In this document: positions 5,560 through 62,016 of the stretch, one piece after another
Position numbering within the stretch: the first letter of the stretch is position 1
Layout of the letters: every line of letters begins with the position of its first letter
Position numbers and translations under genes: made by a program
Source of the DNA: a virus
Taxonomy: Duplodnaviria; Caudoviricetes
Direction: 5' to 3' (one strand)
Virus record (IMG/VR): IMGVR_UViG_3300030372_002840
Location: 6,831-70,830 of that record
DNA: 64,000 nt
The notes under the pieces: generated by a model
Told to the model about the DNA's origin: nothing
The model's database searches: none
What the model saw: only the letters and a program-made list of their open reading frames with translations

Positions 5560-6290
5560 TGCTTGGATTAGGTACTGCATTAATACGTTTAAGTGGTGCA
5601 CCAGATGATGGTGTATATAAATCTGCCAGTCTTGATGGAACTAACGATTACATACAACTTGGTAATATTGGGACTGTTAGATCTTTTCAAATATGGTTTA
5701 AACCAAATACCACTCTTAACTCAGTAACTTCTACAAGACGAATTGTAGGATTTAATTCTGCTGGTACAGGGTATTTTGGTATTCATATTTCTCAAGCAAC
5801 TGGTTTATTTGCTAATGAGACTATAACTGTATTACCAGGCGCAAATAGTAGAACATCAGATACTCAGCTATTATATTCTACTAATTGGTACCATCTTGTT
5901 ATTGTTTGGGACGGCACAGTGTTTCAAATATATGTAAATGGAGTAAATACTACTGTAAACGATGGTAATAATGGAAGCACTGATACTTTACCTTCATTTA
6001 GTTCGTTAAGAATAGGAACAGATAATAGTTCTACTGTTGATGCTTTTGGTGGGTTAGTAGATGAGATAGCAACTTGGTCTTCATCATTAACAGCATCAGA
6101 AATACTTTCTTTATATAATAGTGGTTATACTCTTGATGCAAGAAATGATTCTGGAAATTATGCAAGTTCTGCAGATCTTACAGGATATTGGAGATGTGAT
6201 GATTCTAATATGTTCGATGTATCTACTAATAGTAATAATGGAACTCCTATAAATGGAGTTGCATTTTCTGATGATACTCCTGCTCAATAA
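5559..6290 (+). CDS. LamG/concanavalin-A-like lectin domain protein
   Basis: SLDGTNDYI, FQIWFKP, WYHLVIVWDG...IYVNG, FGGLVDEIATW, LTASEILSLYN, LTGYWR are LamG hallmarks. Confidence 0.85.
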   Translation: MLGLGTALIRLSGAPDDGVYKSASLDGTNDYIQLGNIGTVRSFQIWFKPNTTLNSVTSTRRIVGFNSAGTGYFGIHISQATGLFANETITVLPGANSRTSDTQLLYSTNWYHLVIVWDGTVFQIYVNGVNTTVNDGNNGSTDTLPSFSSLRIGTDNSSTVDAFGGLVDEIATWSSSLTASEILSLYNSGYTLDARNDSGNYASSADLTGYWRCDDSNMFDVSTNSNNGTPINGVAFSDDTPAQ

Positions 6291-6301
6291 ATATATAAAT
6301 T

Positions 6302-6544
6302 ATGCATGAAAATAATAAATATGTAATATTAACTGCAGTAGAAGCTTCTAGTATAGATTTTTCTAAAGTAAAAGAAACTAGCGCTGACACATTATTTTGG
6401 AATAATGATAATAGTAAAACTTTTGTAAAGTATGAGGGTGATACTCCATCTTTTTTAAGAGGTAAACCAACTTTAACTCAAACTGAAATGATAGAAGAAT
6501 TAGAGAAATCTGAATGGGACATCGATGATGGTAATAATAATTAA
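6302..6544 (+). CDS. Small hypothetical protein (LamG-gene-associated)
   Basis: 80 aa ORF tightly packed in the operon; IDFSKVKETS...KTFVKYEGDTPSFL. Confidence 0.5.
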   Translation: MHENNKYVILTAVEASSIDFSKVKETSADTLFWNNDNSKTFVKYEGDTPSFLRGKPTLTQTEMIEELEKSEWDIDDGNNN

Positions 6545-6547
6545 ACA

Positions 6548-7597
6548 ATGAAAAATATAATAATTTTACTTATATTTGTAAGTAGCCTGTGTAATGCACA
6601 GATAAAAAACTTTTTTAAATATTCTACTTTTTATACTTCAATGAGTATGAATACGTCTTTTGTAGAAAGAGATGATTATATAGCAGTAGATAAAGGGTAT
6701 GAAGATGTTACACAAATAAATCCTTATGATTACAATTTAACTGTAGGGATTAGAAAAATTGCAAGATTTGATTATGAGTACAAAGTTAAGACATGGTATT
6801 ATGGAACTGAAAAAGCTGTTGCTGACAATGTTACTATTGGTAATAGTCTTGGTTGGGAGTATTTACTTAATTTTTCATTTATACGTAATCGTGGTAATAA
6901 GTTTATTGATCAAAATCTTTGGCTTAGATACCTTGGAAATAAATGCGTAACAAAATTACAATACAAAGATAATCAAAGAGTTAATCTTGAATATATATCT
7001 TTTGATACAAGATACAGAATAAACTCAGGAAACTGGGATTTTACAGCGGGTTTAGTGATGAGAGCTCATCCTGCTTACGGCTTTGTACCAATCAGGGATT
7101 TTTGGGTACCAGGCGAATCAACCTTTCAACAATTAGCAGAAGACTTTGGCTATGCCCCTGAACAATGGATTCAAGGTTTTTATGCAAATAATAACTGGTA
7201 TGATGTATCAGGAGGTGATTCTGTTCTTGTTGCAACAAGTAATGATGAGTTCTTCAATCACTATTTTGGAGATGCTGTAGCTAGATTTAATGAAAAAGAA
7301 TTAGAAAAGCTAGGCATACAAAAAGAATTAAGTGCAGTTGTTGGAATTGCATATTATAAATATACTCCTAAGTTTTGGTTACATACTTGGGTGAATGTTT
7401 TACCGTATCATTACGGATTAGATGAATACTCTTATGTTTATGAAAATGGTAAAGATATGTTTGAATGGGATTCAGGTATAATTTTTGGAACTAGAGTAAC
7501 TAAAAATTTAGGCTTATTTGTAGAGGGAACACATATGAAATACTGGGATAAACCAGTATATGAAATGAAATTTGGATTTAACTATTTATTCTTTTAA
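6548..7597 (+). CDS. Outer-membrane beta-barrel protein with Sec signal peptide
   Basis: Signal peptide MKNIIILLIFVSSLCNA|Q; many amphipathic aromatic-girdled strands; C-terminal beta-signal EMKFGFNYLFF ending in Phe. Confidence 0.75.
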   Translation: MKNIIILLIFVSSLCNAQIKNFFKYSTFYTSMSMNTSFVERDDYIAVDKGYEDVTQINPYDYNLTVGIRKIARFDYEYKVKTWYYGTEKAVADNVTIGNSLGWEYLLNFSFIRNRGNKFIDQNLWLRYLGNKCVTKLQYKDNQRVNLEYISFDTRYRINSGNWDFTAGLVMRAHPAYGFVPIRDFWVPGESTFQQLAEDFGYAPEQWIQGFYANNNWYDVSGGDSVLVATSNDEFFNHYFGDAVARFNEKELEKLGIQKELSAVVGIAYYKYTPKFWLHTWVNVLPYHYGLDEYSYVYENGKDMFEWDSGIIFGTRVTKNLGLFVEGTHMKYWDKPVYEMKFGFNYLFF

Positions 7598-7599
7598 TT

Positions 7600-7761
7600 A
7601 TGAAAAAAATACTATTAATATTATTATTATCAACAGGATGCTCAATGCTATTTAATGCAGATAAGTATAATCCTAATCCAACTCCTAAACCTATAGTAGA
7701 AGAAGTTGTAGAAGAACCAATAGTTGAACCAGATACAGTAAAAATTATTATAATAGAATAA
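7600..7761 (+). CDS. Small lipoprotein (53 aa, absent from ORF track)
   Basis: Hand translation MKKILLILLLSTGC SMLFNADKYNPNPTPKPIVEEVVEEPIVEPDTVKIIIIE*; lipobox-like STGC; fills the gap between 7597 and 7763 exactly. Confidence 0.75.
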   Translation: MKKILLILLLSTGCSMLFNADKYNPNPTPKPIVEEVVEEPIVEPDTVKIIIIE

Positions 7762-7762
7762 C

Positions 7763-8563
7763 ATGAAGAAATTATTTATCATACTATTTGCATTTGTTGG
7801 CTCATTTGTCAATGCACAACAATACGATTTTCAAGCTATATGCATGGCATGTGCAGAAGCTAACGGTTATTACTGTGGGGATGATCCTGCTAATTGGACT
7901 CAATATGCACCAAATGGATGTGTTATAAATGAATGGTTAAATGACGGTTGGGAAGACTGTGTAGATGCATCTGATGAAAATGGAGCAGTGCCAACTTCTC
8001 CTGAAGATTGTGTACCACCACCTCCAGAATGTGATACAGTGTATGTAGAAATACCTGTAATAGAATATGAATATATATATGAAACTGATACTATCATAGA
8101 AGAAGTAGAAGTTCCTTTTTATATATATGAAACAATAATACAATTTGACACTATTGTTGAAACAGAGTATATAACAACAGTTGTTATAGATACTGTAATT
8201 GAAGAGATTGAAGTATTTGTACCTGAGTATATATATGTTACTGATACAATATATGCAGATGTATTAGATACTATGTATATAGATGTTATAGAATATGTAG
8301 AAGTAGTTGTATATGATACAATAGTTGAAATAGAAACAGAATATGTAGAAATATTTGTTGTAGATACTGTTATAGAATATGTAGAAGTAATAAATACAGA
8401 GTATATAGATTGTGATTCAGGATTACCATGTAATAGTGGTATGGAAGAAATATTAGATAAATCTAATCAAACAGGTTTAATGTATAATCTTTTAGGGCAG
8501 CCAATAAAACGTCCTGAAAGTATTTATATAGAAGACGGTAAAATAAAATACATATTAAATTAA
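7763..8563 (+). CDS. Secreted protein: signal peptide + LDL-receptor class A-like domain + acidic DT-repeat stalk + T9SS C-terminal sorting domain
   Basis: MKKLFIILFAFVGSFVNA|QQ; CVINEWLNDGWEDCVDASDE; eight D-T-[IVM]; C-terminal SGMEEI...MYNLLGQPIKRPESIYIEDGKIKYILN. Confidence 0.75.
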   Translation: MKKLFIILFAFVGSFVNAQQYDFQAICMACAEANGYYCGDDPANWTQYAPNGCVINEWLNDGWEDCVDASDENGAVPTSPEDCVPPPPECDTVYVEIPVIEYEYIYETDTIIEEVEVPFYIYETIIQFDTIVETEYITTVVIDTVIEEIEVFVPEYIYVTDTIYADVLDTMYIDVIEYVEVVVYDTIVEIETEYVEIFVVDTVIEYVEVINTEYIDCDSGLPCNSGMEEILDKSNQTGLMYNLLGQPIKRPESIYIEDGKIKYILN

Positions 8564-8916
8564 TGTATACATATAAAGCAAAGTTAGATAGAATAATTGA
8601 CGGAGATACAGTAGATGCTCATATAGATTTAGGATTTGATGTTACTATACATAAAAGAATAAGACTTGCAGGTATAGATACTCCAGAATCTAGAACAAGA
8701 GATCTTGAAGAAAAAGCTAAAGGATTAGCTGCAAAAGCAAGATTAGAAGAACTACTAAAAGAAGAAAACTTTGTATTAGAAAGTAAAGAAGTTGGTAAAT
8801 ATGGTAGAGTACTTGGTACTTTACATACATATCCTGAAGGAAATTTACCAGTTAATGTTAATGAAACATTAGTGAAAGAAGGGTATGCAGTAGAATATAA
8901 CGGAGGTAAAAAATAA
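8563..8916 (+). CDS. Thermonuclease (SNase-like) family protein
   Basis: IIDGDTV, IRLAGIDTPES, KYGRVLG, LVKEGYA motifs; no signal peptide. Confidence 0.85.
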   Translation: MYTYKAKLDRIIDGDTVDAHIDLGFDVTIHKRIRLAGIDTPESRTRDLEEKAKGLAAKARLEELLKEENFVLESKEVGKYGRVLGTLHTYPEGNLPVNVNETLVKEGYAVEYNGGKK

Positions 8917-9128
8917 TGAATATATTTAAAGACGACAATAATTGGAATGAAAAAGCTATAATTGGATTTGTAGCTTTTATAATTATGTGTATAATAATGA
9001 TAGCTGACCTTGCTACTGGATGGTATGGATATGATTTAGTAATTAATGAATTTGTTTATGATTCATTTGTTTGGGTTGTTCTTGGATGTTTTGGAATTAG
9101 CGGAGTAGAAAAATTCGCTAAAAAATGA
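8916..9128 (+). CDS. Small two-TM membrane protein (possible holin-like)
   Basis: 70 aa with two hydrophobic segments and basic C-terminus GISGVEKFAKK. Confidence 0.5.
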   Translation: MNIFKDDNNWNEKAIIGFVAFIIMCIIMIADLATGWYGYDLVINEFVYDSFVWVVLGCFGISGVEKFAKK

Positions 9129-10519
9129 GTAACAGCAAACAGGGAAGGTTTATTGGGCTCTATGATTATATATTAAGAGCTACGCCTACTACAAATTATT
9201 ATTTGAAGTGGGATGGAACTAAAGCTGTTTGGGCAGAAGTTTCTGCAGGGTTGTCTTTTCATGGATCTACAGCTGATGGAATATGTACTTATAAAGATGC
9301 TGATGAGATAAGTGTAGAATCTACTTTAACTTATGATGGATCTGCTAGTAATACTTTAACTATAGGATCAAATGATTCTAATACTGCTTCAATAGCTAGA
9401 ACAGATCATTCTGACGGAAATGGTGGTAACTTTGCTATAATATCTGGAGATGCTACTGACGGACAACTTAATATGTCAGGTGGAAATTTATTATTACAAG
9501 GAGGAAAAGGTACTGGAGCAGCGTTTGGTGGAAATATACAGTTTTGGTCAACTAATAGAGGCAGTAGTGGTGTTGCTATAAATACAATAAAACAAATAGC
9601 AGATATTGGATGTACTACTGCTTATACAAGTTTTAAAATATATGAAGCAGCAGGTGCAAGTACTGATGATTATTTTGAAACTAGAGTTGCAGAACATGGA
9701 GCTACAACTTTATTTACAAAAGATAATGCTGCTACGGCCGCACATTTAACTTTAGATGTTGATGGAGATATAGAAATAAATGCTGATGGCGGTACTATAA
9801 CGTTTAAAGATGCTAATGCTTTTTTGGCTAAAATAGATACTGATGGTTTAAGTTTTGTTGACAATACTGGAGCAGGAATTATATTTGAAGGTACTACTGA
9901 TGACGCTTATAATACTACATTAACAGCAGCGGATACTACTAGTTCAAGTAAAACAATAACATTACCAGACGCTACTGGAACAGTGCAGTTACAAGGAGAA
10001 AACACAGGACAGGTAATACATGTTAGTATAAAAGATCCTAACTCGTATTTGTTTTATGCGTATAATGATGATTCTTGGTATAGTGCTGGAAGTGGTACGT
10101 TAGCTATATTAGGAAGCTCTGCAGCACCTAGTGATATATCTAGTGCTAATAGTGAGTACCAAAGTAGAGTAGCTTCTTACACAGCTATAGCTGCGTGCAC
10201 TGTTAAGAAGCTAATATTCACTTTTTATTGGACTTCTAGTGTTGTTAACTCTGCTGATATAGATTTTGCTTTTTCAAAGTTTACACCAATAACAGATGGT
10301 ACAGCAGCAAGTATAACAATGAATGCAATAACAGCGACAGATTGTAATGGTTCTTATACAGAGGTTAAACCTTACTCTAAGACCTTTACATTTTCTGGAG
10401 GTAATGCTACATTAGCTGCTGGAGATTGTTTTGGGTTTCACATGAGAACAACTGGAGGACAAAGTGCGCAAAGGGTTATCCTATATGGAAGCGCGATGTT
10501 ATCTGTAGAATTAACTTAA
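9125..10519 (+). CDS. Tail fibre/spike-like protein
   Basis: 464 aa; GGNLLLQGGKGTGAAFGGNIQF repeat like the one in the 3160 protein, TITLPDATGT fibre motif, beta-sandwich-like C-terminus. Confidence 0.6.
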   Translation: MSNSKQGRFIGLYDYILRATPTTNYYLKWDGTKAVWAEVSAGLSFHGSTADGICTYKDADEISVESTLTYDGSASNTLTIGSNDSNTASIARTDHSDGNGGNFAIISGDATDGQLNMSGGNLLLQGGKGTGAAFGGNIQFWSTNRGSSGVAINTIKQIADIGCTTAYTSFKIYEAAGASTDDYFETRVAEHGATTLFTKDNAATAAHLTLDVDGDIEINADGGTITFKDANAFLAKIDTDGLSFVDNTGAGIIFEGTTDDAYNTTLTAADTTSSSKTITLPDATGTVQLQGENTGQVIHVSIKDPNSYLFYAYNDDSWYSAGSGTLAILGSSAAPSDISSANSEYQSRVASYTAIAACTVKKLIFTFYWTSSVVNSADIDFAFSKFTPITDGTAASITMNAITATDCNGSYTEVKPYSKTFTFSGGNATLAAGDCFGFHMRTTGGQSAQRVILYGSAMLSVELT

Positions 10520-10529
10520 AAATATAATT

Positions 10530-10838
10530 ATGGCATTAGGAAGTAAAACATCAGAAAGAATACACGGAAAAACTGGAGGTGATAAAGCAAAGCTTCAGAC
10601 TAATTATGATGAGGGACATTTAAATACGTTTGTAGATTTAGCAGATCATGGGCAGCCAGAATTTGGAGCTTTAATGCTACAAATAGAAAAAATGCAAGAT
10701 GATATAGACGAATTAAGAAGATATGTGATTAGTAATGAAGTATTAGCAACTCCTGGTGTAGGAGGAGCTTTACCAACAAGGGCTTCAAGAAATAGTGGTG
10801 ATTTGTGGAATGATAGAGGAATAGTAAAAGTAGTATAA
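10530..10838 (+). CDS. Short coiled-coil fibre-like protein
   Basis: Coiled coil LQIEKMQDDIDELRRY followed by LPTRASRNSGDLWNDRGIVKVV, a trimeric fibre-tip-type motif. Confidence 0.45.
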   Translation: MALGSKTSERIHGKTGGDKAKLQTNYDEGHLNTFVDLADHGQPEFGALMLQIEKMQDDIDELRRYVISNEVLATPGVGGALPTRASRNSGDLWNDRGIVKVV

Positions 10839-11179
10839 TGGAAGTATCAGAATTTAAATATGTATCAGTAGGGGAAGGAGCAACAGAAGCTTTGTTTACT
10901 GCATCTATAGATCCTGCAAGTGCAGATCCTAAATTACAAATATATTCATCTACTTTAGAAAGAGTTTTAATATGCAATACAGATAATGAAGATATTACTA
11001 TTACTTTAACAATAACAGATGGAACTAATTCTTTTAATATACTTCAAGGTTGTACAATTCCTACAAGCACTACATTAGATGTTTTAAATGGAGTTCCTTT
11101 TGTATATGATGCAAGATATAGAGTAAATATAACAACAGGTGCTGGACATACTTGTGATGTGCTAGCAAGTAAAAAATAA
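10838..11179 (+). CDS. Small beta-rich putative virion protein
   Basis: 113 aa; VLICNTD...ITITLTITDG...IPTSTTL pattern of small phage beta-sandwich proteins. Confidence 0.45.
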   Translation: MEVSEFKYVSVGEGATEALFTASIDPASADPKLQIYSSTLERVLICNTDNEDITITLTITDGTNSFNILQGCTIPTSTTLDVLNGVPFVYDARYRVNITTGAGHTCDVLASKK

Positions 11180-11184
11180 AAAAA

Positions 11185-11526
11185 ATGGGTAAAGAATTAT
11201 CAGAAGATAGTAAATTTCAAATAAGTATAAAAACATTAGTAGGGATTATAGTTGGTGTAGCTACTGTAATTTCTGCATATTTTGGTTTAATGAGTACTAT
11301 AAATTCTAAATTTGTAGAACTTGAAGATAAAGTTGAACAAGCTTTAGAACTACCTAAACCAGGAACAGGAACCTATATGATCGATATGGGAGATCCTGCA
11401 GCTACACAAACTTGGCCCCCGACAAGAATGGAATTTAACATGAAAGATCAAATGGCTAGGGATAAAATTGATCGTGTAATTAAAGATTTAGAAGAATTAA
11501 AACAAGAATTTAAAACACTTAAATAA
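11185..11526 (+). CDS. Single-TM membrane protein with C-terminal coiled coil
   Basis: TM segment TLVGIIVGVATVISAYFGLM; C-terminal IDRVIKDLEELKQEFKTLK. Confidence 0.55.
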   Translation: MGKELSEDSKFQISIKTLVGIIVGVATVISAYFGLMSTINSKFVELEDKVEQALELPKPGTGTYMIDMGDPAATQTWPPTRMEFNMKDQMARDKIDRVIKDLEELKQEFKTLK

Positions 11527-11527
11527 T

Positions 11528-11908
11528 ATGAAAAAATTTATAACATTTATTGTTTTTTTAATTGTAACGTTTAGTTTTGCACAGGGACAATCATTTTTAG
11601 GAACAGATAATTTTGACAAAGAAACAAGTAGAGGTATTATTGTAGTGGAGTTTTGGGCTAGTTGGAATGACGCTAATTCCCCTGAATGGATTACTAAATT
11701 AAAAGAATGTGAAGTTTATAGAGTTGATATAGGAACACATATGGATCTACAAGCTGAATTTGAAATAACTTCTATACCCACAGTTATTATATTTAATAAT
11801 GGTAATATAGAAGAAACTTTTAATGCAAACATTATGTTTCAATTAGAAGCAGAAAAGAAAGACGTTCAAGCAAAAGTGGACGAAATAATATTAAAACAAT
11901 TTAATTAA
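11528..11908 (+). CDS. Exported thioredoxin-fold protein lacking CxxC
   Basis: Signal peptide ...FSFA|QGQ; VVEFWASWNDAN in place of WCxxC; cis-Pro loop SIPTVIIFNNG retained. Confidence 0.75.
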   Translation: MKKFITFIVFLIVTFSFAQGQSFLGTDNFDKETSRGIIVVEFWASWNDANSPEWITKLKECEVYRVDIGTHMDLQAEFEITSIPTVIIFNNGNIEETFNANIMFQLEAEKKDVQAKVDEIILKQFN

Positions 11909-11919
11909 AAAGAAAAGAT

Positions 11920-12309
11920 ATGGCAACATTAACACCAACACTTACATTAGTAAGTACCGATGCTCTTACTGACTCTTTAAATTTATCTTCAACAGATAGT
12001 TTATCAGTACTAGGAAAATCAAAACGATTTACACATGTATGTTCTGCTACTAAGGCTAATTTATTATTAGCGGCAGATTATACTAAATCATATGTATATT
12101 TAAAAAACAACGACGCTGCTATTGTAATACATATTGGTATGGATACACAAGCAGATGATAGTATAGATGATGATGCTACAGACTTGTTTATAGAATTAGC
12201 AGCTGGAGAGTTTGCATTTTTTCCTTGGTCTTCAACATATAATTTACATGTTGATGCGGCTTCAGGAACACCTACATTAGAGGTAATGATATTTCAAGCA
12301 GCAGCATAA
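11920..12309 (+). CDS. Putative virion protein, paralog A
   Basis: MATLTPTLTLVSTDALTDSL...YVYLKN...GEFAFF; paralogous to the next gene. Confidence 0.55.
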   Translation: MATLTPTLTLVSTDALTDSLNLSSTDSLSVLGKSKRFTHVCSATKANLLLAADYTKSYVYLKNNDAAIVIHIGMDTQADDSIDDDATDLFIELAAGEFAFFPWSSTYNLHVDAASGTPTLEVMIFQAAA

Positions 12310-32137: not shown

Positions 32138-35100
32138 ATGGCTGAGGAATTAACACCTGATTTAACAAATTTTTCTACTACAGAAGAACTTCCTGTAGAT
32201 AATCAACTTACTGAACAAGAAGAAGAAAAAAAAGAAGATATATCTCCTGATATATCCTCTTACGCTCCTGTAGCTAGAATTAAAGGCCAGTCGGCAATAA
32301 AAGAAATGTCTCCTACACCTTTAGGTAATTTAGGTTTAGGGTTAGGAGATTCTAAATGGGATTTTCATAGAAAACATGAGGGGCTTACATTAGAGCAAGC
32401 AGTAGATATTAATGAAACTAGAGGAAGACGTCAAAGTAAAGGCGACAAGTGGGCCAATGGTATGCTTAAAGCTTTAGGTAAAACAGGCACAAATCTTGTT
32501 GGAGGTACAATAGGTGCTATTTATGGGGCGGCTTCTGGTTTATATAATTTAGAATTTGATAAAGTATTTAATAACTCATTTGCAAATAGTTTAGATAATA
32601 TAAATGAATGGATGGATAACAAGCTTCCTAATTATTATACTAAATATGAAAGAGAGGCAGAGTTTTGGAGAAGAGCGGGAACTGCTAATTTTTGGTCTGA
32701 TCAATTTATGAATGGTATGAGTTTTGTTGCTGGTGCAGCATTAACAGAAATGGCTTGGGTTTATGCTACAGGTTTAACATTTGGAGCAGCAGCGCCAATA
32801 GCAGCGGCTGCACATGCAAGAAACATGGCTCGTCTAAAAAGAATATTTAAAGTAGCAGATAGAGGAGCAGATGCTAATAAGTTAAAGGAACTAACAAGGG
32901 CTGCTCAACAAACTACCTTATTAAGACAAGGAGGAAACCTTATGAGGCAAATCTATACAGGAGCTGGATATGAAGCTGGTGTTGAAGCTAGAGGGCATTA
33001 TGATCATTTAAAACAAGCTCTAATAGATAAAGCAAAACTAGAAAATGGGGGTAAAGAATTGTCTGAAACAGAACTTGAGAAAATAGAAAAAGTAGCTAGA
33101 GCAAGTTCTAATGGTGTATTTACAGGTAATTTACTTCTTGTTGGAGGAGGTAATATGTTAATGCTTAGTAAACTATATGGACCAGGTCATGCAATAAAAA
33201 AAGGATGGAATAAGGCTATGTCTTCTATTATACCTGGATTTGGAAAAGGTGTTAGAGTAGCAGGTAAAGGAGCTAGTAAAAAAGCGCAAGCTGCATATAA
33301 AACAAGTCGTTTAGGACAAGCTTTAGGAGTACCACAAAAAGCACAAGAATTTATAAACAAAGGATTATCTAGAACTAAAGCAGCATTAAAAGTTCCTTTG
33401 TATGAAGGGTTTGTAGAAGAAGGTGGGCAATCTGTAATTGATAAAGCTGCATATAATTACAATATGTTAAAGTATGGGCCTGAGGGTCAAAAAACTGCCG
33501 TTTCTTTGTTAGAAGCTACTAGACAGGCTGGTATGGAAACTTATGGTAGTGATGATGGTATGACTGAGGTAATGTTAGGATTTTTAATAGGTGCAATTGG
33601 TTTACCTGGAGCTAGTGGAAGTCTTACAAATATACAGCAACAATTGAAAGACGTTGGAGCAAGAGAAGATCTACAAGATTTTATGGCTGACTACTACAAT
33701 AAAAATGTTGATTTATTAGCCGCTTTAAAATCTCAGGGCGAGTTTATGACTGAAACACAAGAACTATCTAATTTAATGGACCATGCCATGGCTGAAGGTA
33801 ATTTAGCCGCTTGGAAAGATCTTGAAAACGACCAGTTATTTTCATATGTAAAATCAAAAATAATGAGTGGTCAGTTTGCAGATATTGTAGAAGATGCAGA
33901 ATCACTTAGAAACTTAAGTGATGAACAATTTATGGAATTGTTTGATTACAATAAAGAAGATTTTAAAAGTTCAGCAGACATATCAAAAAGAAAAAATAAA
34001 GTTGCAGATGATGTTATAAAAAGAGCAAACAAAATCAAGGAAGGTTTTGATGCAGTAGATGGAATGTTTGACTTTGGTAAAGAAAAGTGGACTAATGAAG
34101 AAGCTAAAAAGTTAAGAGAGAGTATGGCGCACTCGTTATCAGTAATTGAAAACGTGTCAGAGAGAGAAAAAGCATTAACTTACGCACTAGCAGAATTAAC
34201 AGGTGGTAGAGTTGTAGAGTCACAAGATACTAAAAATAAAGGAGCTGCAAGGACTATAGTATACGGTGAAGGGGAAAATTCAAAATCGTTTACATTAAGT
34301 GATTTTAGCAGTTCTACTGATTTACATAATTATAAAAAATATCAAAAAGTATTAAAAGATATTGACTCTGGAAAAATGAAAGAATCTCCTATTCCAGGCA
34401 AGTCTATAGAAGAGGCTAGAGCAATTATAGCAGATACTTTAGAACAATTAAGGGTTAGAATTGATCAGTTTGCAGGTAGCCCAGAAGTAGATATAACAGA
34501 ATTAACAGCAGAAGAATTAGATTTATTATCAGCCTTTTTACCGCAAATGGAAGAATGGGGACAAAACGATCCTGCAGGATATGGTAAAAATCTTAAAGAA
34601 GCTCTTCAGTTAATTAAAGATCTTAGACATTTACGTGCTAGAAGACATGAGTTTATTGGAAACTTTAATAATCTTATGTATGGTCCTAAAGTTGCGAGAG
34701 ATCAGCATTTACAAGAAATAGAAAGATATATTGAAGATATAAAAAATGAAGAAGGTGTAGAAGGATTAATGGACCCTGAAGCTAGAGAACTATTTCAAAA
34801 ATTTGGTCCTAATGCTAAATTTAAAGTTAATGATAAATTCTATAGATTTACTCCCGAAGGTATATTGTATGAAGATGGAGATAAAAATCAAACTCCTGTA
34901 GATCCTAGTATTCTTAGAGGTATTGCAGAACAAGATATTATAACTACAGAAAAAGAAAAAGCAACTAAATTATTAGATGCGTTAAAAAAGCTAAAAGAAA
35001 AGAAAGGAGAAAAGATTAAAGAGCTGCATAACAAAATAGCTGAAGAAGAAGAAAAGATTTTACAATATCTTATAGAGCTTGAAGAAGAGTATGAAGGATT

Positions 35101-38100
35101 TAAACAAGATACTAAGGGAAGATATAGAAAGGATGGTAAGTTTATATCTAGCAAAAAAGTACAAGAACTTAAAGAATTCCACACAGTATTAAATGAGCTT
35201 ATAAAAGAAAGTGAACTTGCTATTAAAGAAACTCAAGAGCTTGTAGATGAAATTGTAGCACAACAAGATTATATAACTGAACTTGTAGAAAAACATTATG
35301 ATCCAGAGCAAGGAATATTTACTATGGACTTTGATGCTACTTATGAACTAAGTAAACAAGTTCGTATGACTGGGGCTGAATTACTAGGATTACCTATTAT
35401 AGGTGATATGGAATCAGGAAAGTCTTTACAAGAACCTGCAGACCACATAAAAAAATCTAAAGAAATTATAGATGGTATAAATGAGGTTGTAGATGCTGCA
35501 AAAACAAATATAGCAATACTACAAGAAAAAATCTTTGAATTAAAACAGACTAGAAATGATCTAGAACAAATTCTTATACGTAAACTAAAAGAAGCTGAAT
35601 CTGGTCTTCAGTCTGTACAAGGTAAAACTTTGGATGAGATTTATGTAAATAATGTAAGCAATGCTGATAAAACCGTAGCAGTATTAGAAGCTCAGGAAGA
35701 AGAGGATGGAGTTCCGCAAGAGCAAAGAAAATCTACACCATTACGTCGGTTATTAAATATAATATATGAAACTGGAGGTAAAGGATTAACTACTTTTTCT
35801 GAGTACAGAACTTTTATAGAAGATAATCCAGGTATATTAGATCCTTTAGATGTGTATTTACAAGATGTATTTAAAGTAAATAACGCTTTAAATGATGCTA
35901 ACTTTTTAAAACAAGAACTAGATTTATTAGATAATGAAATATCTAATATTAAAAATCTTATAAATGAAATTAGATCTGACCAAGGTAATGAAGCAGATGC
36001 AGATCAAACAATACAACTAGCTAATAGTGTAATAGAAGCAGGCAGATTCCAAACTATAATGGATGAGTTAACAGAGTTAATGTTAGAGCTAGAAGAGGAA
36101 ATTTTAAAACCTATTGCAAATAAAGATGATGATAGTGCAGATCCTAGTGATCCTAAACCATCAGATACTACTACTGATCCTAATCCTCCTACAGACGGGA
36201 ACAATACTAATAACGATAAAAATACAGAAAAAGACAATAAAAGATTGTACACAATGTCTGTAGAGTCTCCTTATTTATACTCTTCTACAACAGGTATGCA
36301 TAATACACATTTAGAAAGATATAGAATATTAGGTGCAAAGAAAAGTAGGACTACAGACGAAGAAAAAGAATATAAACACCATAAAAATCAATTAAAATTT
36401 TATAGAGCATTAAATGCTTATCATCCTTATAGAGTTAAAAAGGGTAGTAAACAAGCTACTGTAAGTTTAATGGCTGTATCTGCTAATGATTTAAACGACC
36501 CTAATTTAGATCCTAGAATTAAAGAGGCTTTAAAAGATAGTTTTTATAATGAAGATACTGGTAAATTTGATGATACAGGTTCTATGGATGCTCAAAAAGC
36601 AGACATTAAACTTGTTATGGTTTATACTAATTCTGGTCAACCTTATTTAGTAACAGAAAAAGGTAAGAATTCTAATAAGGGTACTGTTGCCTTTACATCT
36701 GCAAAACGTTCAACTACTGAACTAGAAACTGAAGATGGACAAGTAAGCAGATTTTCTAATCCATTAGAAAGACCTCAAGAAGAATACGATGCCTTAGTAG
36801 AAGAAAAATCAAATGCATGGGCACAATGGAGAGCAAATACATTAAATAAAAATTATGAAGATGGTGTATCTGTATTAAATAAAATATACAGAATAAATGA
36901 GGTTAGTGTAGGAATGCCAAATTTCCAAGAAAACAAATTGTTTCCAGCTAAAGGTAGAGTAGGTCAGACAAATTTAGATCAAGTAGATTTAAAAATTGCA
37001 AAAAACGTAAATAAAACTACAGGAAGAGCTACTATAACTTTAGGTAAAAAAGGTAAAGCTAGATCCTTAGATGTAAATCCAGGTTTTGTATATGTAGAAA
37101 AAAATGGAGGTTATATACCATTTAAGGTTAGAACATTAGAATCTTCTGAAGCAGATAATGTAACTAATATTCTTAGAAAAATAGCTGAAAATAGAGCACA
37201 AGCTACTAAAGAGGCTGAAGAACAAGGATTAAAAGGTGCAGAAAAAACAAATTATATAAAAGATAGGCTACATATAGTTGAAGGAGTAGATCTTGAAATA
37301 CCTGATTTAATACGACAAGTAAGAAATGTTGTATTTATGGGTAATGTTACCTCTAAAAATAAAGATCATTACAAACCAGAGTACAGACTTAGCTATGATA
37401 GAAATAAAAAAGGATACTTATATGGCTTAGATGGTTTTATTAGTAATCAACAGTTGGTAAAAAATGATGCAAAAGCAATTGCAGAGTTTAAAAATTTCTT
37501 ATTGACTAAGTATCATCAAGTTGATGCGGCTATGGTTAATGCTTCTAGAACAAAAGAAAAAGGAAAGAAAGCTACATCTAATCCGTATACACACTTAGTT
37601 TTAGATAATAACTTGAATGTGAATCAAGAAAAAACTAAAACATATAAAAACTATGTTGAGTATTTATTAGAAAATGAAGGTAGAGATACAGCGCCTCCTT
37701 TGCAAGTATCTGTCCCTCAAGATGATGAAGGTATAGAAGCACCTCAATTTAAGTATAGAAAAGTAATGTTTGATGCAAATCAACCTACTAAACGAAGTAC
37801 AGCCCCTGTATTAACGCCAGAGGATACTAGTATTGCAAATGAAACTATAGGAGATGAAGCTATAGAGGGTGCTCATCCTACACAAACAGAATCTTTACAA
37901 TTATTTACACCTGTTTTAAATTTATTAGGAGAACAGAAAGCTTACACATTACCTTCAACTCCTGATTTTCCTAACGGTATCAAAATAACTCCTATTATTG
38001 TAGACGGTAAAGTTACTGGGCATAAGGCTATACTAAACTACTTTCAAATAGATCCTACTAATCCTATGATTGAATCTACTTTCCCTAAAGGATTGACTTG

Positions 38101-41100
38101 GGATCAAACAATAAATTTACTTAAAAAAGATTTTGCAGAATATAAACAAGATCCGTGGACAGTAGGATTTGAAGATTTCTTAGCTTTTAAATATCACGCA
38201 GATATGAACTTAGAGCAAGAAAAAGAAAATTATACACTTACTGACGAGCAAATTGAAAGAGATGAAGAGTTACCTTCTGAAGATCCTTCTCCAACGCCAT
38301 CTACAAATGAAAATATAGATGAAACTTCTAGCAGTACAACAGATTTAAGTGATTTAATTTCAGAAAATACAGAGCCTTCAGAAGTCGATGTAACAGACGC
38401 AGATAACTTTATGGATGATTTTGATCCAGAGGGAGATGTAAACTTAGATGACGAGGCTGACATGGCCTATGTAGATAGTATAGAAGTACAGAATAGAGAT
38501 AATCAGCAACTAATAGATGAAATTAAAAATGCTACTAGAATGTTGCCTTGGAACGAAATAATTAAGGTCATAGGCGTTATTAATAGAAATAATAGAAGAA
38601 GCTATGGTCGTGTATTAGGGCACGGTAAAACTCTTGTATCTACTATAGGTCCCGGAGGTGTAGCATATCATGAAACATTCCATCAAGTATCTTTATATAT
38701 ACTTTCTAAAGAGTCTAGAGAGGGTATGTATTCAGCTGTTAAAAATTTAAAAGGAAAGGGCAGACCAGGATTTGGAAAGGAGATGAAATCTTTTAAAGAT
38801 TTTACAAATAGAGAAGCAGAAGAATGGTTAGCAGAAGAGTTTAGAAAATACATACTAAGTAATGGTACACGTGATTTAACAAAATACGAGACTGCAGAAA
38901 AAGGGTTTTTCAAAAGAATTTTTGATTTAATTAAAAACTTTTTAAGAACACATCTTGGGCTAAGTAATACATTACAACCTGATCCGTCTATGGCAGAAGT
39001 TCAAAGATTATTTGAAAACATTAATGCAGGTAAATATGCAGAGTCTAAACCGGATACCAGAAATGATTTAGACGCAGTAGCAGAAATGGCTATACTAGAA
39101 GGTAAATCTGCAACAGATTCTGTTGAGTTAATGAATAATATATCTATGTATTTAGGAAAACAGTTATTTAACGACAATCCTATAACTAGCGCAGATATAG
39201 AATTACTAACAGATCCTACACGTAAACAGGAATTTAGCAGAACTTTAAAATTAAAATATACAGAATCTATAAAAGATCTTAAAAAAGATTTATATCAATT
39301 AGCTGCAATTGCTAAAAAGAAAGGTAATATAACGTTATACGCTAATCTAGTAAAAGATTTAAGGTATATACAAGATAATACTAGATACTTATTTAGACAG
39401 CATAGAAACTTTATAATGCAGTTTGGATTAGATTATAATATAGAAATGGATGACGTGGCGTTAGAGCAAGATAGATCTAAAGATGTATATAATATATTAG
39501 ACTCTTTTAACTTTTCTACTGTAACTAATGCAAATCCTTTAATTAAATTAATGATAGGAACCTTACCTGGAGAAAGAAGCCAGGTTACAGGATTACCATC
39601 TGTAGTAGATTATACTAAGACTATGAACTTTTTAAAAGAAAAGTTAACAAATACAACTACTATTAGTCAGCAGATTGAAGTATTAAAAGCATTAGAACCT
39701 AATCGTCCTTATATTACAGAGCTATTAAAAAGATTAGGAGATATAGGTAATACAGGTACAATGTCTTACGACGAACTTAAGACACATAATTTATTTGCAC
39801 AAGAATTTACAACTACTAAAAATAAATTTATAACTTATTTAATAGATGAAAGAGGAAACTTTCACCCTATAGATTCTAATAAACAACAAATTAATGGTAT
39901 TATAGGTAGACAGTGGAAAAGTAATTTAATGGCTAAGATAGGCACCATGCTTAAACAAGAAGATGGTGTAAATGTTATTGACTTAGATTACAAAATACCT
40001 ATTAAAAGTTTAGGTGTAAAATTATCTATACGAGATCTACAAAATAATCCTAAGAAACTTAAAGAAATTCAAGGGCCTGCCTTAATAGATTTTTATAGTG
40101 CTATGGGTATTACATTTAGTAACCCAGATGCCTTATTAGATAATAATAATAAATTAAACGAAGAAAGTTTACCTGTTATTTTAACAGATACATTTTCATG
40201 GATTATAAGTCAATTAGACGACAATACAAAAGACTCAGATTTATTTAGTAGAGATCATTTAAATATAACTACAAAGCTTGGAAAGTTAATAGAAGCAGAG
40301 TTATTACATAATGATACAGTTGTAGAATTAAGACATTTTACGCCAGAAGGAAAGCCGGTATATGGTATTACGTTGCATAACTATATGAGTATGGTGCTTT
40401 CTGATTTAAATAAAGGAATATTGCCTAGACATTTAGAAGGAAATCCACATGCATTAAATTCTCTTTTAATAAAGCATTCTCAACAAGGAGGACAAACTAG
40501 TATAAATGTTATACAAGGTTTAGACACTAGGAATTCTAAACAGGGCTCTTTAACATCTAAATTAAGTCCTGGAGATAGGTTAGCTATTATGGCAAATTCT
40601 TTACTGCAAAAAAATCCAATATCGTCTTTATTAAGAACAGCTGATGGTAAAACAGAATACGGAATAACTCTTCCAGAATCTACACCTTCTAATATTTTAA
40701 AAGCAAATAAAATATATAAAGGGTACTTTAAAGATGAACTGCAATTAGCTAGAAATTTAAATGCTGATGGTATAGGATCTGATGTAAATTATTTTAGAAA
40801 TGAAGCGCAAGGTTTAAGAATTTTTGATTCTATTGTAAATATACCAAGCGAAACTAAGCAACATAAGCTATTTAAAGCAGACTTAACTAAAGCTTTAAAT
40901 GGTACTATGAATGTTGACGAGTTTATGGAATCTAACGGGGACTATGTTGCAGGATTAACTAGAAAGTATTTAAAAAAGGAAGCTAAAACTATTAGGGAAC
41001 TGTTACATAAAAACAGAATTATAGAAGATGTAAGTTTAGTAAATAATGGATTAGACCCACAATTACTACAAAAACTATTTAATTTAGATGGACCTGCACC

Positions 41101-44100
41101 TAAAACTTTATCTCAAAACCAAGTAAATAAAATAGCAGAAGCAATAGCATTACGTACATTTATAGGACATAATGAACAATTAAAAGTTTTATTTGGGGAT
41201 CCTGCTTTTTACAAAGCATTGTACAAAAGAACCAAAGGATTAATAGGTACAAAGAAATTTGCTAGAGTAGATAATGCAATAGACAATTGGCTTAATCAAC
41301 CTGAATTCCGTAGATGGGATGGTAAAGAAGCAAATGGAACATTTAATGTATCAGTAAGTGCAGATCCTGTAACAACAGTAGATGATGCATATTATATTGA
41401 ACTAATAAGATACTTAGGAAAAGAAAAGGCTGATAAGTATACAAATATAGAAGAAGCTGATGCACAAGCATATGCTTCTATGGACTTTTACAGAGAGTTT
41501 TTAATAAGAGTAGGTGATTGGAGTCAAGCTCAGGAAGATTTATTTCAAGAAATAATGAGTAATCCTGATGCAGTAGTACCATCAAAAACTTTATTTGAAA
41601 CATTCCCTGTTTTAAAACCTCAGTATTTTGGACCACAGATTACAAATAATCCTATATATGCTCCATATTTTATGAAGTTATCATTAGCACCTATATTCCC
41701 GCAAATGGCAACTGTAAATGGAGAACGTACTCAGCTAGCAGATCTTATAGAGGATATGAATAATACTCAAACAGATATTAAAATATTCCCAACAGGTGTT
41801 AAAGTAGGACATAGAGTAGGTAAAAATGGTAAAGCACCTAATTTTTATAATAAAGATGGTAGTATAGCTAAAATAGAACCAAATTTAAGATCTATTCTTG
41901 ATTTTAAATATATGGGAATACAAGTAGATATATCCCCAAAACCTAAAACTACATCAACTGTAGGGACACAAGCACGTACACACTTATTAGCTAATATGTA
42001 TAATGGGGGAGTACCTGTAGATTTTGATAATGGGATTAATGAATGGAACTTATTAACAGAAAAGCAGAAAAACGAAGAGTCTCCAGTTTACAAATTAACT
42101 CAAGAATATAAAAGATTACACTCTGAATTAGTAAATAGATCTAAAAATAGAATATTAGATAGATTTAATTTAGTACAAGAAGGTAATAAATATAAACTTA
42201 AGGATGGAGATTTAAAAAGCTTTACAGAATTTATACAAGAGGAAATAGCTAGTAGGCAATGGCCAGAAAATATTGCAGCCGGTGTTAATTTTTTGTTAAA
42301 GCAAAATCAATCAGAAGCAGTATTTGATATACTAGTCAATAAAGATAGAATAGAAAGTTTATTATTTTCTATTATAGGTAATAATGTAGTAACACAAAAA
42401 TTTAAAGGAGATTTACGAGTACAAACTGCATCTACCGGTTTTGAAACAACCTTAAGAGCAGTTAAACAAAAAGCTGGTAAACAGTATAATATAGGTAGCC
42501 CATTAAAATTCTACAGAAAAGAGGATGCTGGTATAGGGTCATCTAAAACATTAGGTATGGAAGTTTTAATGCCACATTACTTTAAAGAGTACTTTGGTGT
42601 TGATATGGAAATAAGACCTGATGGTATATATAATAAACAAGGAGAAAAGGTAGGAGATCAATCTTTACTAGAAGTTATAGGGTTCCGTATACCAACTGAT
42701 GGGCTTCATTCTATTGAATTCATAAAAGTAAAAGGATTCTTACCTGAAAAATCAGGTTCGCAAATTGTAGTACCAGCAGAGCTAGTAACTAAATCTGGAT
42801 CTGACTTTGATATTGATAAATTAACATTATACTTCCCTGCATATAGAATTGACGGAAGAGGTAAAATAAGAAAAAAAGAATATTTAGAAGGAGCTGTAGA
42901 TGAAAATGGATATGCAACTGAAAAAACTTTGCAAAAATTTTATGACGATAAATATGGCCCTACTTTAAACTTTATAAAAGATTTAGATAGAGAATTAACT
43001 GAGGCTAAACGTTATAGAAGAGAAGATAAATATACTGGTCTTGGTGATGCTGTAGATAGATTAATGGTAGCAATATTTGCAGAAAAAGCATTTAGTGATG
43101 AAGAAATGAAGGTGCTTGAAAATACTTTTAATGCAGATAAAAATTTATCTGAAGATAAAAGATTAGATTCTATAGTAAATCAATATAAAGAATTACAAAA
43201 AAGAGTAAAAGATATACCTACATTTACACAGTTTAAAAAAGAAAACAAAGAAAAAACTATTGAACAGTTAAATGACAAAGGAGCTATACAAAATAGAATA
43301 ATGGATATATCTAAAATGATATTAGAAGATGCTAATTCATATGAGCAGTTACTATCTCCTATAGGTGTAGACATTCTAAAAAAACATGTTACAAGGCTAA
43401 GAGAACTCAATCCAAAGTTAGACCCAGGCTCTCCTAGTTACGCAGAATTAATATCCTTAGCACACGTATTAAAAACAGGGACATCTTTCTGGTCAGGACA
43501 AGCAGGCCTGGGAATAGCAGCTGTAAATTCTACACACGTAGTTAAATCTCAGCAAGCAGGATTATTTATACCTGCTAACACTACAGTAGAATCAGCAGGA
43601 GAATCATATAAACCTAGTATAAACTTTGCAGGATTTGACGCATCTAGTAATGGAGGTGAAATAAGTTTAGCTAGACAATATGCAATAAATGAAAAAGGAC
43701 AAAACTCAGATGAACTTATAACTGGTATAATGTCTGAACTTGTAAATGCATATGTAGATGTAGCAGATGATCCATTTATATTTGATTTAAATGCTGTACC
43801 AGAAGCTAGTAATGCAATGTTCTTTTTAATTAGAGCAGGGGTTCCTACAGATAAAGTATTTACATTTTTAAATCAGCCTATAATAAGAGATTATTTTACA
43901 ACATTAAAAGATAGTAGCAGTAAATTTTTAGAAATAAAAGGAGCTAATGTGTCTAAACGTAAAGTTAGAGATTATATAGCTAGCTTATATACTGAGAAAC
44001 TAAATGGGAAAGCATCTCCTACTAGAACAATGTTTACATTAGCTCAATTAGAATCTATGGTAGGTATAGATGTATCTAAAATGTCTCCACAACAAGCTGC

Positions 44101-61161: not shown

Positions 61162-62016
61162 TTAAAATATATATCTAATTGTGTTCCAAGGTATCACTTC
61201 ACTGTGAACAGCTCGGAACCGGTTAATTAATTCTCCTTTTATACGAGATTTGTACCTAATATTTTTACCTCCATATTGAGATATCTTAGGTTCTTGCCAT
61301 TGTGATGTCCATAAATCATCTTCTGCTTTAGGGTTATCTGTTAAGTTATATATATGTCTATTTTCATTATGTGTTAAAAATATACACTCAGCCAGTACTT
61401 GGTCTTTATAACTAACATAATCGTTAACCATTTCAAACAGTTCTCTATAATCTTTAAGCCATCCATTATATATAATAATAGGGCTGTAGTTTATATGTAC
61501 ATCATAACCTGCATCAATAAAAGCATCAATAGCTTTAATACGATCTATAATTTTAGATGTATTAGGCTCATGTATGTCAGCTTTATGCTGAGGCATAAGA
61601 CTAAATCTAATTCTAATTTTACCTTGAGGATCAAATGCTGTAAGGTCAGGGTTTACATATTTAGTTGCAAAACTACCCATAGCTGTCTCATGGTCTCTAA
61701 AGAATTTAAATATCTGTTGCCACTCGTGATACTTAGCATGAAGAGCAAAGTCTTCGTTGCAACTAATATCATAAGTTATATAACTTTTATGTGTTTGATT
61801 AGGTTTTTTAACTTCAGTAAACCAAGCATGATTGTTTATAGATGTTAATATATCTGCTGTATTTTTAGCTACTGATAAACCTACAGGTTTATTACGCTTC
61901 ATATAGCAATAAGAACAATTATATAAACAACCATGCCCAAAACTTGGGGATATATAATCTGTTGATCTACCTGATTCTCGTATTTTAAAAGATTTTCTAT
62001 TTACTTTTTGTATCAT
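61162..62016 (-). CDS. splB: Spore photoproduct lyase (radical SAM)
   Basis: GCLYNCSYCY (C30-C34-C37), SCNED (C86, equivalent of the H-donor Cys), FATK, RIRFSL, EPNTS...DRI...AGY...SPII, YGG..IRY. Confidence 0.85.
   Translation of the reverse strand: MIQKVNRKSFKIRESGRSTDYISPSFGHGCLYNCSYCYMKRNKPVGLSVAKNTADILTSINNHAWFTEVKKPNQTHKSYITYDISCNEDFALHAKYHEWQQIFKFFRDHETAMGSFATKYVNPDLTAFDPQGKIRIRFSLMPQHKADIHEPNTSKIIDRIKAIDAFIDAGYDVHINYSPIIIYNGWLKDYRELFEMVNDYVSYKDQVLAECIFLTHNENRHIYNLTDNPKAEDDLWTSQWQEPKISQYGGKNIRYKSRIKGELINRFRAVHSEVIPWNTIRYIF

Follow-up and report, generated by a model that had tools for sequence, protein, structure and literature searches.

The 64,000-nucleotide stretch of viral DNA analyzed in this study (the window) spans positions 6,831 to 70,830 of IMG/VR record IMGVR_UViG_3300030372_002840 (Duplodnaviria; Caudoviricetes) and makes up most of this 70.8-kb virus record. 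Our subject is an open reading frame (ORF) of 266 amino acids on the plus strand (7763..8563), in which positions 7841-8011 encode residues C27-C83. The initial annotation described these residues as an LDL-receptor class A (LDLa) domain of eukaryotic type that had lost one disulfide and was carried by phage-encoded cargo of a secretion system of type IX (T9SS), and suggested that they might serve as a decoy or ligand-binding head. LDLa modules are textbook receptor modules of animals.

Five parts were distinguished in the 266-aa protein: a hydrophobic signal peptide, a Cys-rich region (aa 27-90), a short Pro-rich linker, a repeat tract of 125 aa consisting nearly entirely of I, V, Y, E, T, and D, and a C-terminal piece of ~50 aa. 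The mature protein contains 55 acidic and 5 basic residues (pI ~4). Gln follows the cleavage site in signal-peptidase I substrates of Bacteroidetes (the Q-rule; PMC5837995), and Q19, directly after the predicted cleavage site, was ≥90% conserved among aligned homologues. The features of the gene and of the two genes preceding it are compiled in Table 1.

Table 1 Coordinates of the features described in this study (positions in the window)
Feature	Position	Strand	Basis and remarks
Partner gene, 349-aa signal-peptide outer-membrane beta-barrel, C-terminal Phe	6548..7597	+	AlphaFold2 model, synteny
Accessory 53-aa lipoprotein gene, lipobox L-S-T-G-C	7600..7761	+	Between the barrel and LDLa genes
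Sec signal peptide, aa 1-18	7763..7816	+	Read from the sequence; putative cleavage between A18 and Q19, judged by eye
LDLa-like module, aa C27-C83	7841..8011	+	Six Cys (C27, C30, C38, C53, C66, C83); N60 at the canonical C4
Insert between C2 and C3, aa G39-G52	7877..7918	+	Invariant N-W-T-Q-Y core; subfamily-specific
Ca2+-cage core, aa W58-E72	7934..7978	+	Predicted ligands W58 (O), D61, W63 (O), D65, D71, E72
Acidic beta-prone repeat stalk, aa C90-I215	8030..8407	+	Eight D-T-[V/I/M] units, zero basic residues
C-terminal unit, aa 216-266	8408..8560	+	C217-x5-C223 loop, short helix, beta-hairpin tail

The Ca2+-cage module and its prokaryotic relatives

Residues 58-72 were found to read W58-x-x-D61-G62-x-x-D65-C66-x-D68-x-S70-D71-E72, which bears out the Ca2+-cage pattern initially annotated (W-x-x-D-G-x-x-D-C-x-D-x-S-D-E). 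The replacement of the fourth LDLa Cys (C4) by Asn was likewise found as described, N60 being present in 190/193 non-redundant members of the family. In two alignments of 24 and 74 homologues, C27, C30, C38, C53, N60, D61, D65, C66, D71, E72, and C83 were invariant, as was the N-W-T-Q-Y core of the insert between C2 and C3. Because its residues are invariant across homologues, the LDLa pattern is not regarded as a chance match. The six Ca2+ ligand positions of LDLR module 5 (1AJJ) presumably map to W58 O, D61, W63 O, D65, D71, and E72; all six residues are present, and the head would be expected to bind Ca2+. The spacing of the cysteines departs from the canonical six-Cys arrangement, as C4 is Asn and C6 is displaced.

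The assignment to the Pfam family PF00057 held in part: it was the top Pfam match, but the scores of 19 bits for the whole protein and 21.9-22.6 bits for the domain alone stayed below the gathering score of 24.1, and the match covered only positions 13-35 of the 37 profile positions. The same family was the best Pfam match in 64/74 members, in each case below the gathering score. When a profile of the domain (A2) was compared with all PDB sequences, 45 sequences were matched (best E 2.5e-4), all of them LDLa-type modules; they included VLDLR, LRP1, LRP2, LDLR, CD320, the glucosidase II beta subunit, and enteropeptidase.

An AlphaFold2 (AF2) model of the 266-aa protein, built on a 75-sequence alignment, showed an LDLa-like fold for the head with a predicted local distance difference test (pLDDT) of 84-93. 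The listed Foldseek matches of the predicted head were nearly all LDLa modules; their E-values were not significant, which is to be expected at a length of 40 residues. Using VIA-align, VLDLR LA3 was placed on aa 27-75 (Z 3.3, root-mean-square deviation (rmsd) 2.1 Å, 39/39 residues) and LDLR module 5 was superposed with Z 2.9 (rmsd 2.4 Å, 36/37 residues). Taking Foldseek and VIA together, rmsd values of 2.1-2.5 Å and Z-scores of 2.5-3.3 were obtained over whole modules of 37-39 residues. Ligand positions, predicted fold, and intermediate-sequence homology thus support an LDLa-type module located N-terminally to the stalk of an exported protein, and on these sequence and model grounds we consider the head confirmed as a real, although divergent, LDLa-type Ca2+-cage module.

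A hmmsearch with the A2 profile against 1.84 billion representative proteins returned 196 matches. The strong ones (E 1e-48 to 1e-10) included long multidomain cellular proteins containing the same module with a C2-C3 insert of 12-14 aa, and the phage module was linked to these insert-bearing cellular modules at E-values down to 1e-36. The weaker matches with many stretches were animal LDLa-repeat proteins (Ptychodera, a crab). The insert, whose core across the insert-bearing modules is N-W-T-x-Y, was found in all prokaryotic and phage modules compared and was absent from the eukaryotic LDLa repeats compared.

The insert-bearing modules fall into two forms. C-type modules retain the canonical six Cys and exceed the gathering score of PF00057 (P0130, one stretch, 26.1 bits; P0157, 30.4 bits; P0123, three modules, 54.5 bits); their carriers, from Candidatus Neomarinimicrobiota, are annotated as type A sorting-domain proteins of the T9SS and also contain dockerin and Por_Secre_tail domains. 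N-type modules, the form found in the phage, are carried by proteins of Flavobacteriales and of Crocinitomicaceae metagenome-assembled genomes (MAGs), which often have a genuine T9SS C-terminal domain (CTD). A maximum-likelihood tree of the modules, which is no more than rough at 57 columns, separated every insert-bearing module from the animal repeats (99/100) and united the N-type modules (92/89); within it, the window module paired with the Flavobacteriales T9SS protein P0152 at 100/95. The description as eukaryote-type therefore had to be abandoned: judging by its insert-bearing cellular relatives and by its placement in the tree, the window module belongs to a marine prokaryotic LDLa subfamily and is not a eukaryotic import. 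Most likely, it was exchanged with Flavobacteriales.

Eukaryotic LDLa repeats (LDLR module 5, VLDLR LA1-3) and the phage module agree in the Ca2+-cage pattern, including every one of its six ligand positions, and in a conserved aromatic residue preceding the cage. They also agree in where the cysteines of C1-C3 and C2-C5 lie and in the predicted fold (36-39 residues within the rmsd range given above). The phage module differs in N60, in a C6 located 11 residues further downstream, in a new Cys three residues before C1, in the C2-C3 insert of 14 aa, and in its occurrence as a single copy at the N-terminus. The insert and the cage are shared with the cellular modules (Flavobacteriales MDA9836043.1 cluster, Crocinitomicaceae MAGs, and Neomarinimicrobiota MBC8196514.1 cluster), and those from Flavobacteriales, at ~60% identity, additionally share the exchange of C4 for Asn, the C-x-x-C start, and the displaced last Cys. 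The cellular proteins are multidomain proteins of 700-1200 aa (Kazal, PKD, dockerin) with a recognizable Por_Secre_tail CTD, whereas the phage protein of 266 aa ends in the stalk and a short tail. A Gly-type variant of the module was observed in P0193 (1027 aa, TARA contigs of ~10 kb), which has no signal peptide and contains many C-T-D-x-x-A-x-N-Y-N repeats.

The cysteine pattern was evaluated in non-redundant insert-bearing modules, 20 with C4 and 40 without. None of the 20 C4-bearing modules had a Cys three residues before C1, and their C6 was located 2-5 residues past D-E. All 40 modules without C4 (Asn, rarely Gly) had an extra Cys that gives C-x-x-C, and their last Cys was located 7-12 residues past D-E, so that the total remained at six. 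The loss of one disulfide that had been proposed is not what this perfect covariation (40/40 vs. 0/20) points to, but a rewired third disulfide. Because the loss of C4 was always accompanied by a new Cys before C1 and a displaced C6, the disulfide appears to have been moved, not lost. Probably, C4-C6 is replaced by a C27-C83 pair clamping both ends of the module, and C1-C3 and C2-C5 are predicted to be kept as C30-C53 and C38-C66. A Zn-ribbon reading of the C-x-x-C motif was rejected: the match to Zn_ribbon_10 was weak (E 0.03-0.1), the protein is exported, and the motif covaries with the loss of C4.

The stalk, the C-terminal unit, and cellular proteins that share them

The stalk (C90-I215) contains 33 acidic residues and no basic ones. 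Within the repeats, it is D and T that are invariant in the homologue alignment, and the number of repeats varies from 1 to >10 among homologues. The sequon of the general O-glycosylation system of Bacteroidota is D-[S/T]-[A/I/L/V/M/T] (PMC12871550). The stalk in the window contains eight such sequons of the form D-T-[V/I/M], and the mean across 193 members was 8.1, compared to 0.9 in shuffles. Located in an exported protein, these sequons suggest that the stalk may be O-glycosylated by the periplasmic system of the host. Three further invariant cysteines flank the stalk (C90, C217, and C223; 8030-8032, 8411-8413, and 8429-8431), bringing the mature protein to nine Cys. C217 and C223 probably form a loop; C90 would then either have no partner or be available for closing the stalk as a hairpin.

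When longer proteins were searched, signal-peptide proteins of 481-778 aa came up in which the unit (C-D-T at its start, then D-T-[IV] repeats, the Cys loop, and the tail) is the same as in the phage but follows other heads (P0412-P0417). Loci L089-L100 and L106 likewise have the unit behind other heads. Their heads are leucine-rich repeats (LRR), LamG, SprB repeats, or small Cys-rich modules, not LDLa as in the phage, and one of the proteins is annotated as an SprB repeat protein of a Flavobacteriales MAG. No barrel-stalk fusions were detected among the longer proteins searched. A metagenome scan for the stalk-tail unit yielded 321 confirmed loci, of which 80 were kept; most of these represent the phage gene and several are cellular. 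L095, for instance, is a cellular contig of 23.8 kb encoding a methionyl-tRNA synthetase, MBOAT, an AlgX-like gene, a phosphorylase, and a Kelch protein, and L090 adjoins tRNA synthetase and RpiB-like genes. In two cellular contigs (L095:2637-6318 and L106:2527-6261), the stalk-tail protein directly follows a gene pair encoding an MBOAT (AlgI-like) protein and an AlgX-like acetyltransferase.

Over the last 56 aa, cellular and phage proteins are 52-59% identical. The cellular contigs have a GC content of 0.29-0.36, compared to 0.32 for the phage, and Gln is present at the end of the signal peptide in accordance with the Q-rule, which also applies to the cellular proteins compared individually (P0412-P0417; L090, L095, L096, L098, and L106). 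A search of viral contigs for the cellular 697-aa protein P0416 found nothing, and neither did one for the tail in the three MAGs bearing an LDLa-like module; the window tail was found in 0/401 sampled Flavobacteriales genomes. The stalk-tail unit is rare or lineage-restricted. Because the same unit ends cellular signal-peptide proteins with other heads, the C-terminal ~50 aa most likely act as a signal by which the host machinery sorts or anchors the protein. For the same reason, the phage protein is to be seen as a minimal copy of a host protein type consisting of head, stalk, and anchor.

The designation as T9SS cargo was not substantiated. Published T9SS CTDs are Ig-like 7-strand 3+4 beta-sandwiches of 70-100 aa (PMC11285876), whereas AF2 modeled the last ~45 aa as one helix and a two-strand hairpin (pLDDT ~75), preceded by repeats without predicted structure. 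The window protein gave no match to PF18962 and the NCBIfam T9SS models at E≤10, and with the cutoff at E≤1, neither PF18962 nor the sorting models for type A (TIGR04183-type) and type B were matched by any of 75 members. A hhalign comparison of the family C-terminus with six genuine CTDs aligned 15 columns around Y-N-L-x-G-Q at a probability of 2.9%. Among Atlas language-model look-alikes of the tail, Por_Secre_tail and DUF6383 clusters scored 0.77-0.79, which is in the chance range. The tail thus has the C-terminal position behind cargo domains of exported Bacteroidota proteins and a short motif likeness in common with type A CTDs (PF18962/TIGR04183), but it is about half as long, is predicted to fold differently, and matches none of the models.

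Nevertheless, true T9SS cargo exported across the outer membrane and attached to the surface via the host T9SS, with the ~50-aa tail as a minimal or lineage-specific signal, has to be weighed as a tentative alternative. The tail motif Y-N-L-L-G-Q followed by G-I-Y-I-x-x-G-K resembles the last strands of type A CTDs over the 15 aligned columns, the look-alike clusters point in the same direction in spite of their low scores, stalk and tail occupy the position of the CTD in cellular proteins with SprB-repeat and LRR heads typical of T9SS cargo, and relatives of the LDLa head are found in bona fide type A cargo. The failure of all sorting models, the low hhalign probability, the chance-level Atlas scores, and the departure from the sandwich fold speak against it, and a T9SS substrate would not need a dedicated phage barrel. 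Dependence on the T9SS is accordingly doubtful, but some host sorting route, possibly the T9SS, is plausible because stalk and tail also end cellular cargo-like proteins.

A second type of short tail (G-F-x-L-x-I-Y-[DN]-D-G ... K-K-Y-L-I-K) was observed in signal-peptide proteins of the same low-GC marine lineage (P0128, P0151, and L098:3-530), some of which bear an LDLa-like module. A 215-aa Flavobacteriales protein (L169:991-1638) ends in a mini-tail similar to this second type.

The upstream barrel, the phage, and its host

A tblastn search located the barrel gene upstream of the LDLa gene in 80/80 fetched viral loci. The upstream ORF was resolved in 75 of them, with a gap of ≤4 nt to the LDLa gene in 51/75; in the remaining loci, one or two small genes lie between the two, such as the 53-aa lipoprotein gene in the window, which was detected in 6/80 loci. 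The acidic tail of this lipoprotein also holds a D-T-V sequon. The signal peptide of the barrel fits the Q-rule (predicted cleavage between A17 and Q18). In its AF2 model (pLDDT 74, predicted template modeling score 0.71), the protein is all-beta with one helix of 24 residues. Its structural neighbors are all outer-membrane barrels of 12-14 strands, namely the EstA autotransporter (Z 11.0), OmpG (10.8), OpcA (10.6), NanC (10.5), and Tsx (10.4), followed by FapF (Z 8.2) and PorV (Z 8.0), and none of them stands out.

No Pfam family matched the barrel. Its 400 relatives are all close, with 52-98% identity across the lineage, the corresponding Atlas clusters are 100% viral, and the barrel was found in 0/401 sampled Flavobacteriales genomes. 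An identity as PorV was discarded, as PorV ranked among many generic barrels, and so were the neighbors named by Atlas (autotransporter, Phage_OMP), whose score of 0.93 is in the chance range. Kinship to the gene upstream of a cellular stalk protein was rejected as well: hhalign was negative, and that gene is AlgX-like. Outer-membrane barrels encoded by phages are known from lambda Lom. Like Lom and the cyanophage Phage_OMP (PF24653), the barrel is encoded among late or structural genes; it differs from them in lacking a sequence match to any Pfam barrel family and in being strictly paired with an exported stalk protein.

No phage-type barrel was found beside the cellular stalk-tail genes examined, and on a contig of a contractile-tail phage (L124), the LDLa-stalk-tail gene likewise has no barrel beside it. 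The barrel is therefore an addition specific to the crAss-like lineage described below and not a universal requirement. The gene on the contractile-tail contig (L124:1226-1834) encodes 203 aa, is located between tail-tube and tape-measure-like genes with a tail sheath gene nearby, and contains V-I-E-Y repeats mostly without the D-T sequon.

Downstream of the LDLa gene, a staphylococcal-nuclease-like endonuclease (8563-8916; PF00565, phrog_452) is followed by a 70-aa holin-like protein with two transmembrane segments (8916-9128), which is 80-90% identical in 49/80 loci and is usually encoded just downstream of the LDLa gene. A spore-photoproduct-lyase-like protein (61162-62016, minus strand; PF20903, E 1.7e-24) is located in the replication module.

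Within the 4686-aa ORF (32138-46198), aa 3300-4000 share 24-28% identity with the putative virion RNA polymerase of crAss001 and crAss-like relatives, including Cellulophaga phages, and the best matches of the DnaB-type helicase are crAss-like phages of Bacteroides and Cellulophaga. On account of these two matches, the virus is classified by sequence as a marine crAss-like phage. The known hosts of crAss-like phages are Bacteroidota (PMC10136315). The crAss-like matches, the Q-rule fit of both exported proteins, and the sequon enrichment indicate a Bacteroidota host, probably of the Flavobacteriales.

At 90% clustering, the family of the 266-aa protein comprises 1252 proteins; marine metagenomes are the source of every one, and none carries a name. 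The family is present on 224 viral contigs; the phage DNA occurs in marine plankton metagenomes of at least five studies. Among the INPHARED phages, neither a megablast of positions 6000-12000 nor tblastn with a 938-aa protein from the replication side, with the barrel, or with the LDLa protein gave a match; the crAss-like matches came only from the RNA polymerase region and the helicase. PHROGs and NCBIfam likewise contained no match for the LDLa protein or the barrel.

Proposed location and role in the infected cell

The working proposed here builds on sequence features, conservation, homology links, predicted folds, and synteny, from which we infer that Ca2+ is bound, how the disulfides pair, and that the stalk is glycosylated, together with the location, ligand, and role of the protein and its partnership with the barrel. 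Both the 266-aa protein and the barrel would be exported via Sec in accordance with the Q-rule, and the barrel would insert into the outer membrane. The 266-aa protein would be oxidized and loaded with Ca2+, which is plentiful in seawater, and its stalk would be O-glycosylated in the periplasm. The tail may then steer it to a sorting or anchoring step of the host, with the phage barrel probably serving as export channel or anchor. At the cell envelope, a basic ligand would find a pocket of acidic and aromatic residues in the LDLa head, as is the case in other LDLa modules. Taken as a whole, a Sec-exported envelope protein composed of host-type parts (a rewired LDLa head, a glycosylated stalk, and a sorting tail) and accompanied by a phage barrel is the explanation that fits best, and we consider it rather probable.

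Several points weigh against this explanation. The window module scores below the Pfam gathering score and aligns to the C-terminal half of PF00057 only, and the structural Z-scores, which stem from a predicted model, are low, as expected at ~40 residues. The cysteine pairs were derived from covariation and cannot be read from the AF2 model. The pLDDT of the stalk is ~25, the term stalk being taken from its composition. The partnership with the barrel follows from synteny, and the barrel-free loci described above do not share it. Finally, the tail profile was found in only 1/401 sampled Flavobacteriales genomes, and weakly.

With regard to location, display on the surface is a distinct possibility that falls a little short of being probable, and a periplasmic role appears doubtful. 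It is unlikely that the protein is retained in the periplasm, or at the inward-facing side of the outer membrane, with its LDLa module as a Ca2+- and disulfide-stabilized cap without ligand, the pair acting in envelope remodeling or lysis, for example in late destabilization of the outer membrane. O-glycoproteins of Bacteroidota are indeed mostly periplasmic or periplasm-facing (PMC12871550), the genes are part of a late, structural-side block beside the holin-like gene (49/80 loci), and the extreme acidity of the protein would be in line with such a function. However, LRR and SprB-type heads, modules typical of surface adhesins, are found on the same stalk and tail in cellular proteins, signatures of an endolysin or spanin were not detected nearby, and the invariant aromatic and acidic pocket residues are also expected of a binding site. 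Convergence, i.e., an acidic D-x-D-x-S-D-E Ca2+ motif in an unrelated Cys-rich fold, would agree with the sub-gathering Pfam score over half of the model and with Z-scores ≤3.3, but is highly improbable given the unbroken series of sequences (E 1e-36 to 1e-15) that connects the phage module with six-Cys modules passing PF00057, the superposition of whole LDLa modules on aa 27-75 including the N-terminal half, and PDB matches, by sequence in every case and by fold, to LDLa-type modules.

For the envelope protein of host-type parts that we favor, receptor masking or exclusion, adhesion, and envelope destabilization are candidate roles. The likeliest of these is an alteration of the infected-cell surface, e.g., by receptor masking, exclusion of other phages, or adhesion. 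As a more far-reaching and tentative proposal, the stalk and the ~50-aa tail may constitute an undescribed sorting or anchoring signal of uncultured marine Flavobacteriales (a minimal T9SS or a dedicated-barrel route). It would have been captured together with the rewired LDLa head by at least two kinds of phages, crAss-like and contractile-tail, and the crAss-like lineage would have added the barrel to display a Ca2+-dependent binding module on the cells it infects, which could serve, e.g., adhesion or superinfection exclusion.

Bacterial LDLa domains have already been recorded in domain databases. Our literature search found no paper linking LDLa to phages, Flavobacteria, or T9SS, and no earlier description appears to exist of the insert-bearing subfamily, of its disulfide-rewired form and its occurrence in phages, or of the stalk-plus-tail unit that phage and cellular proteins share. 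The sizeable marine prokaryotic LDLa subfamily includes a natural variant, one of whose three disulfides seems to have shifted rather than disappeared, and this rewired module provides a clean case for the evolution of small disulfide and Ca2+ modules. In an abundant marine phage lineage, an exported protein that would consist wholly of host-type parts is coupled to an outer-membrane barrel found only in phages. The pair offers a testable system for envelope alteration by phages of Bacteroidota and a candidate for a new C-terminal sorting unit in uncultured Flavobacteriales. The exported protein would represent a case of a phage copying host envelope proteins, as marine Flavobacteriales employ its head, stalk, and tail as components of surface-type proteins of their own.

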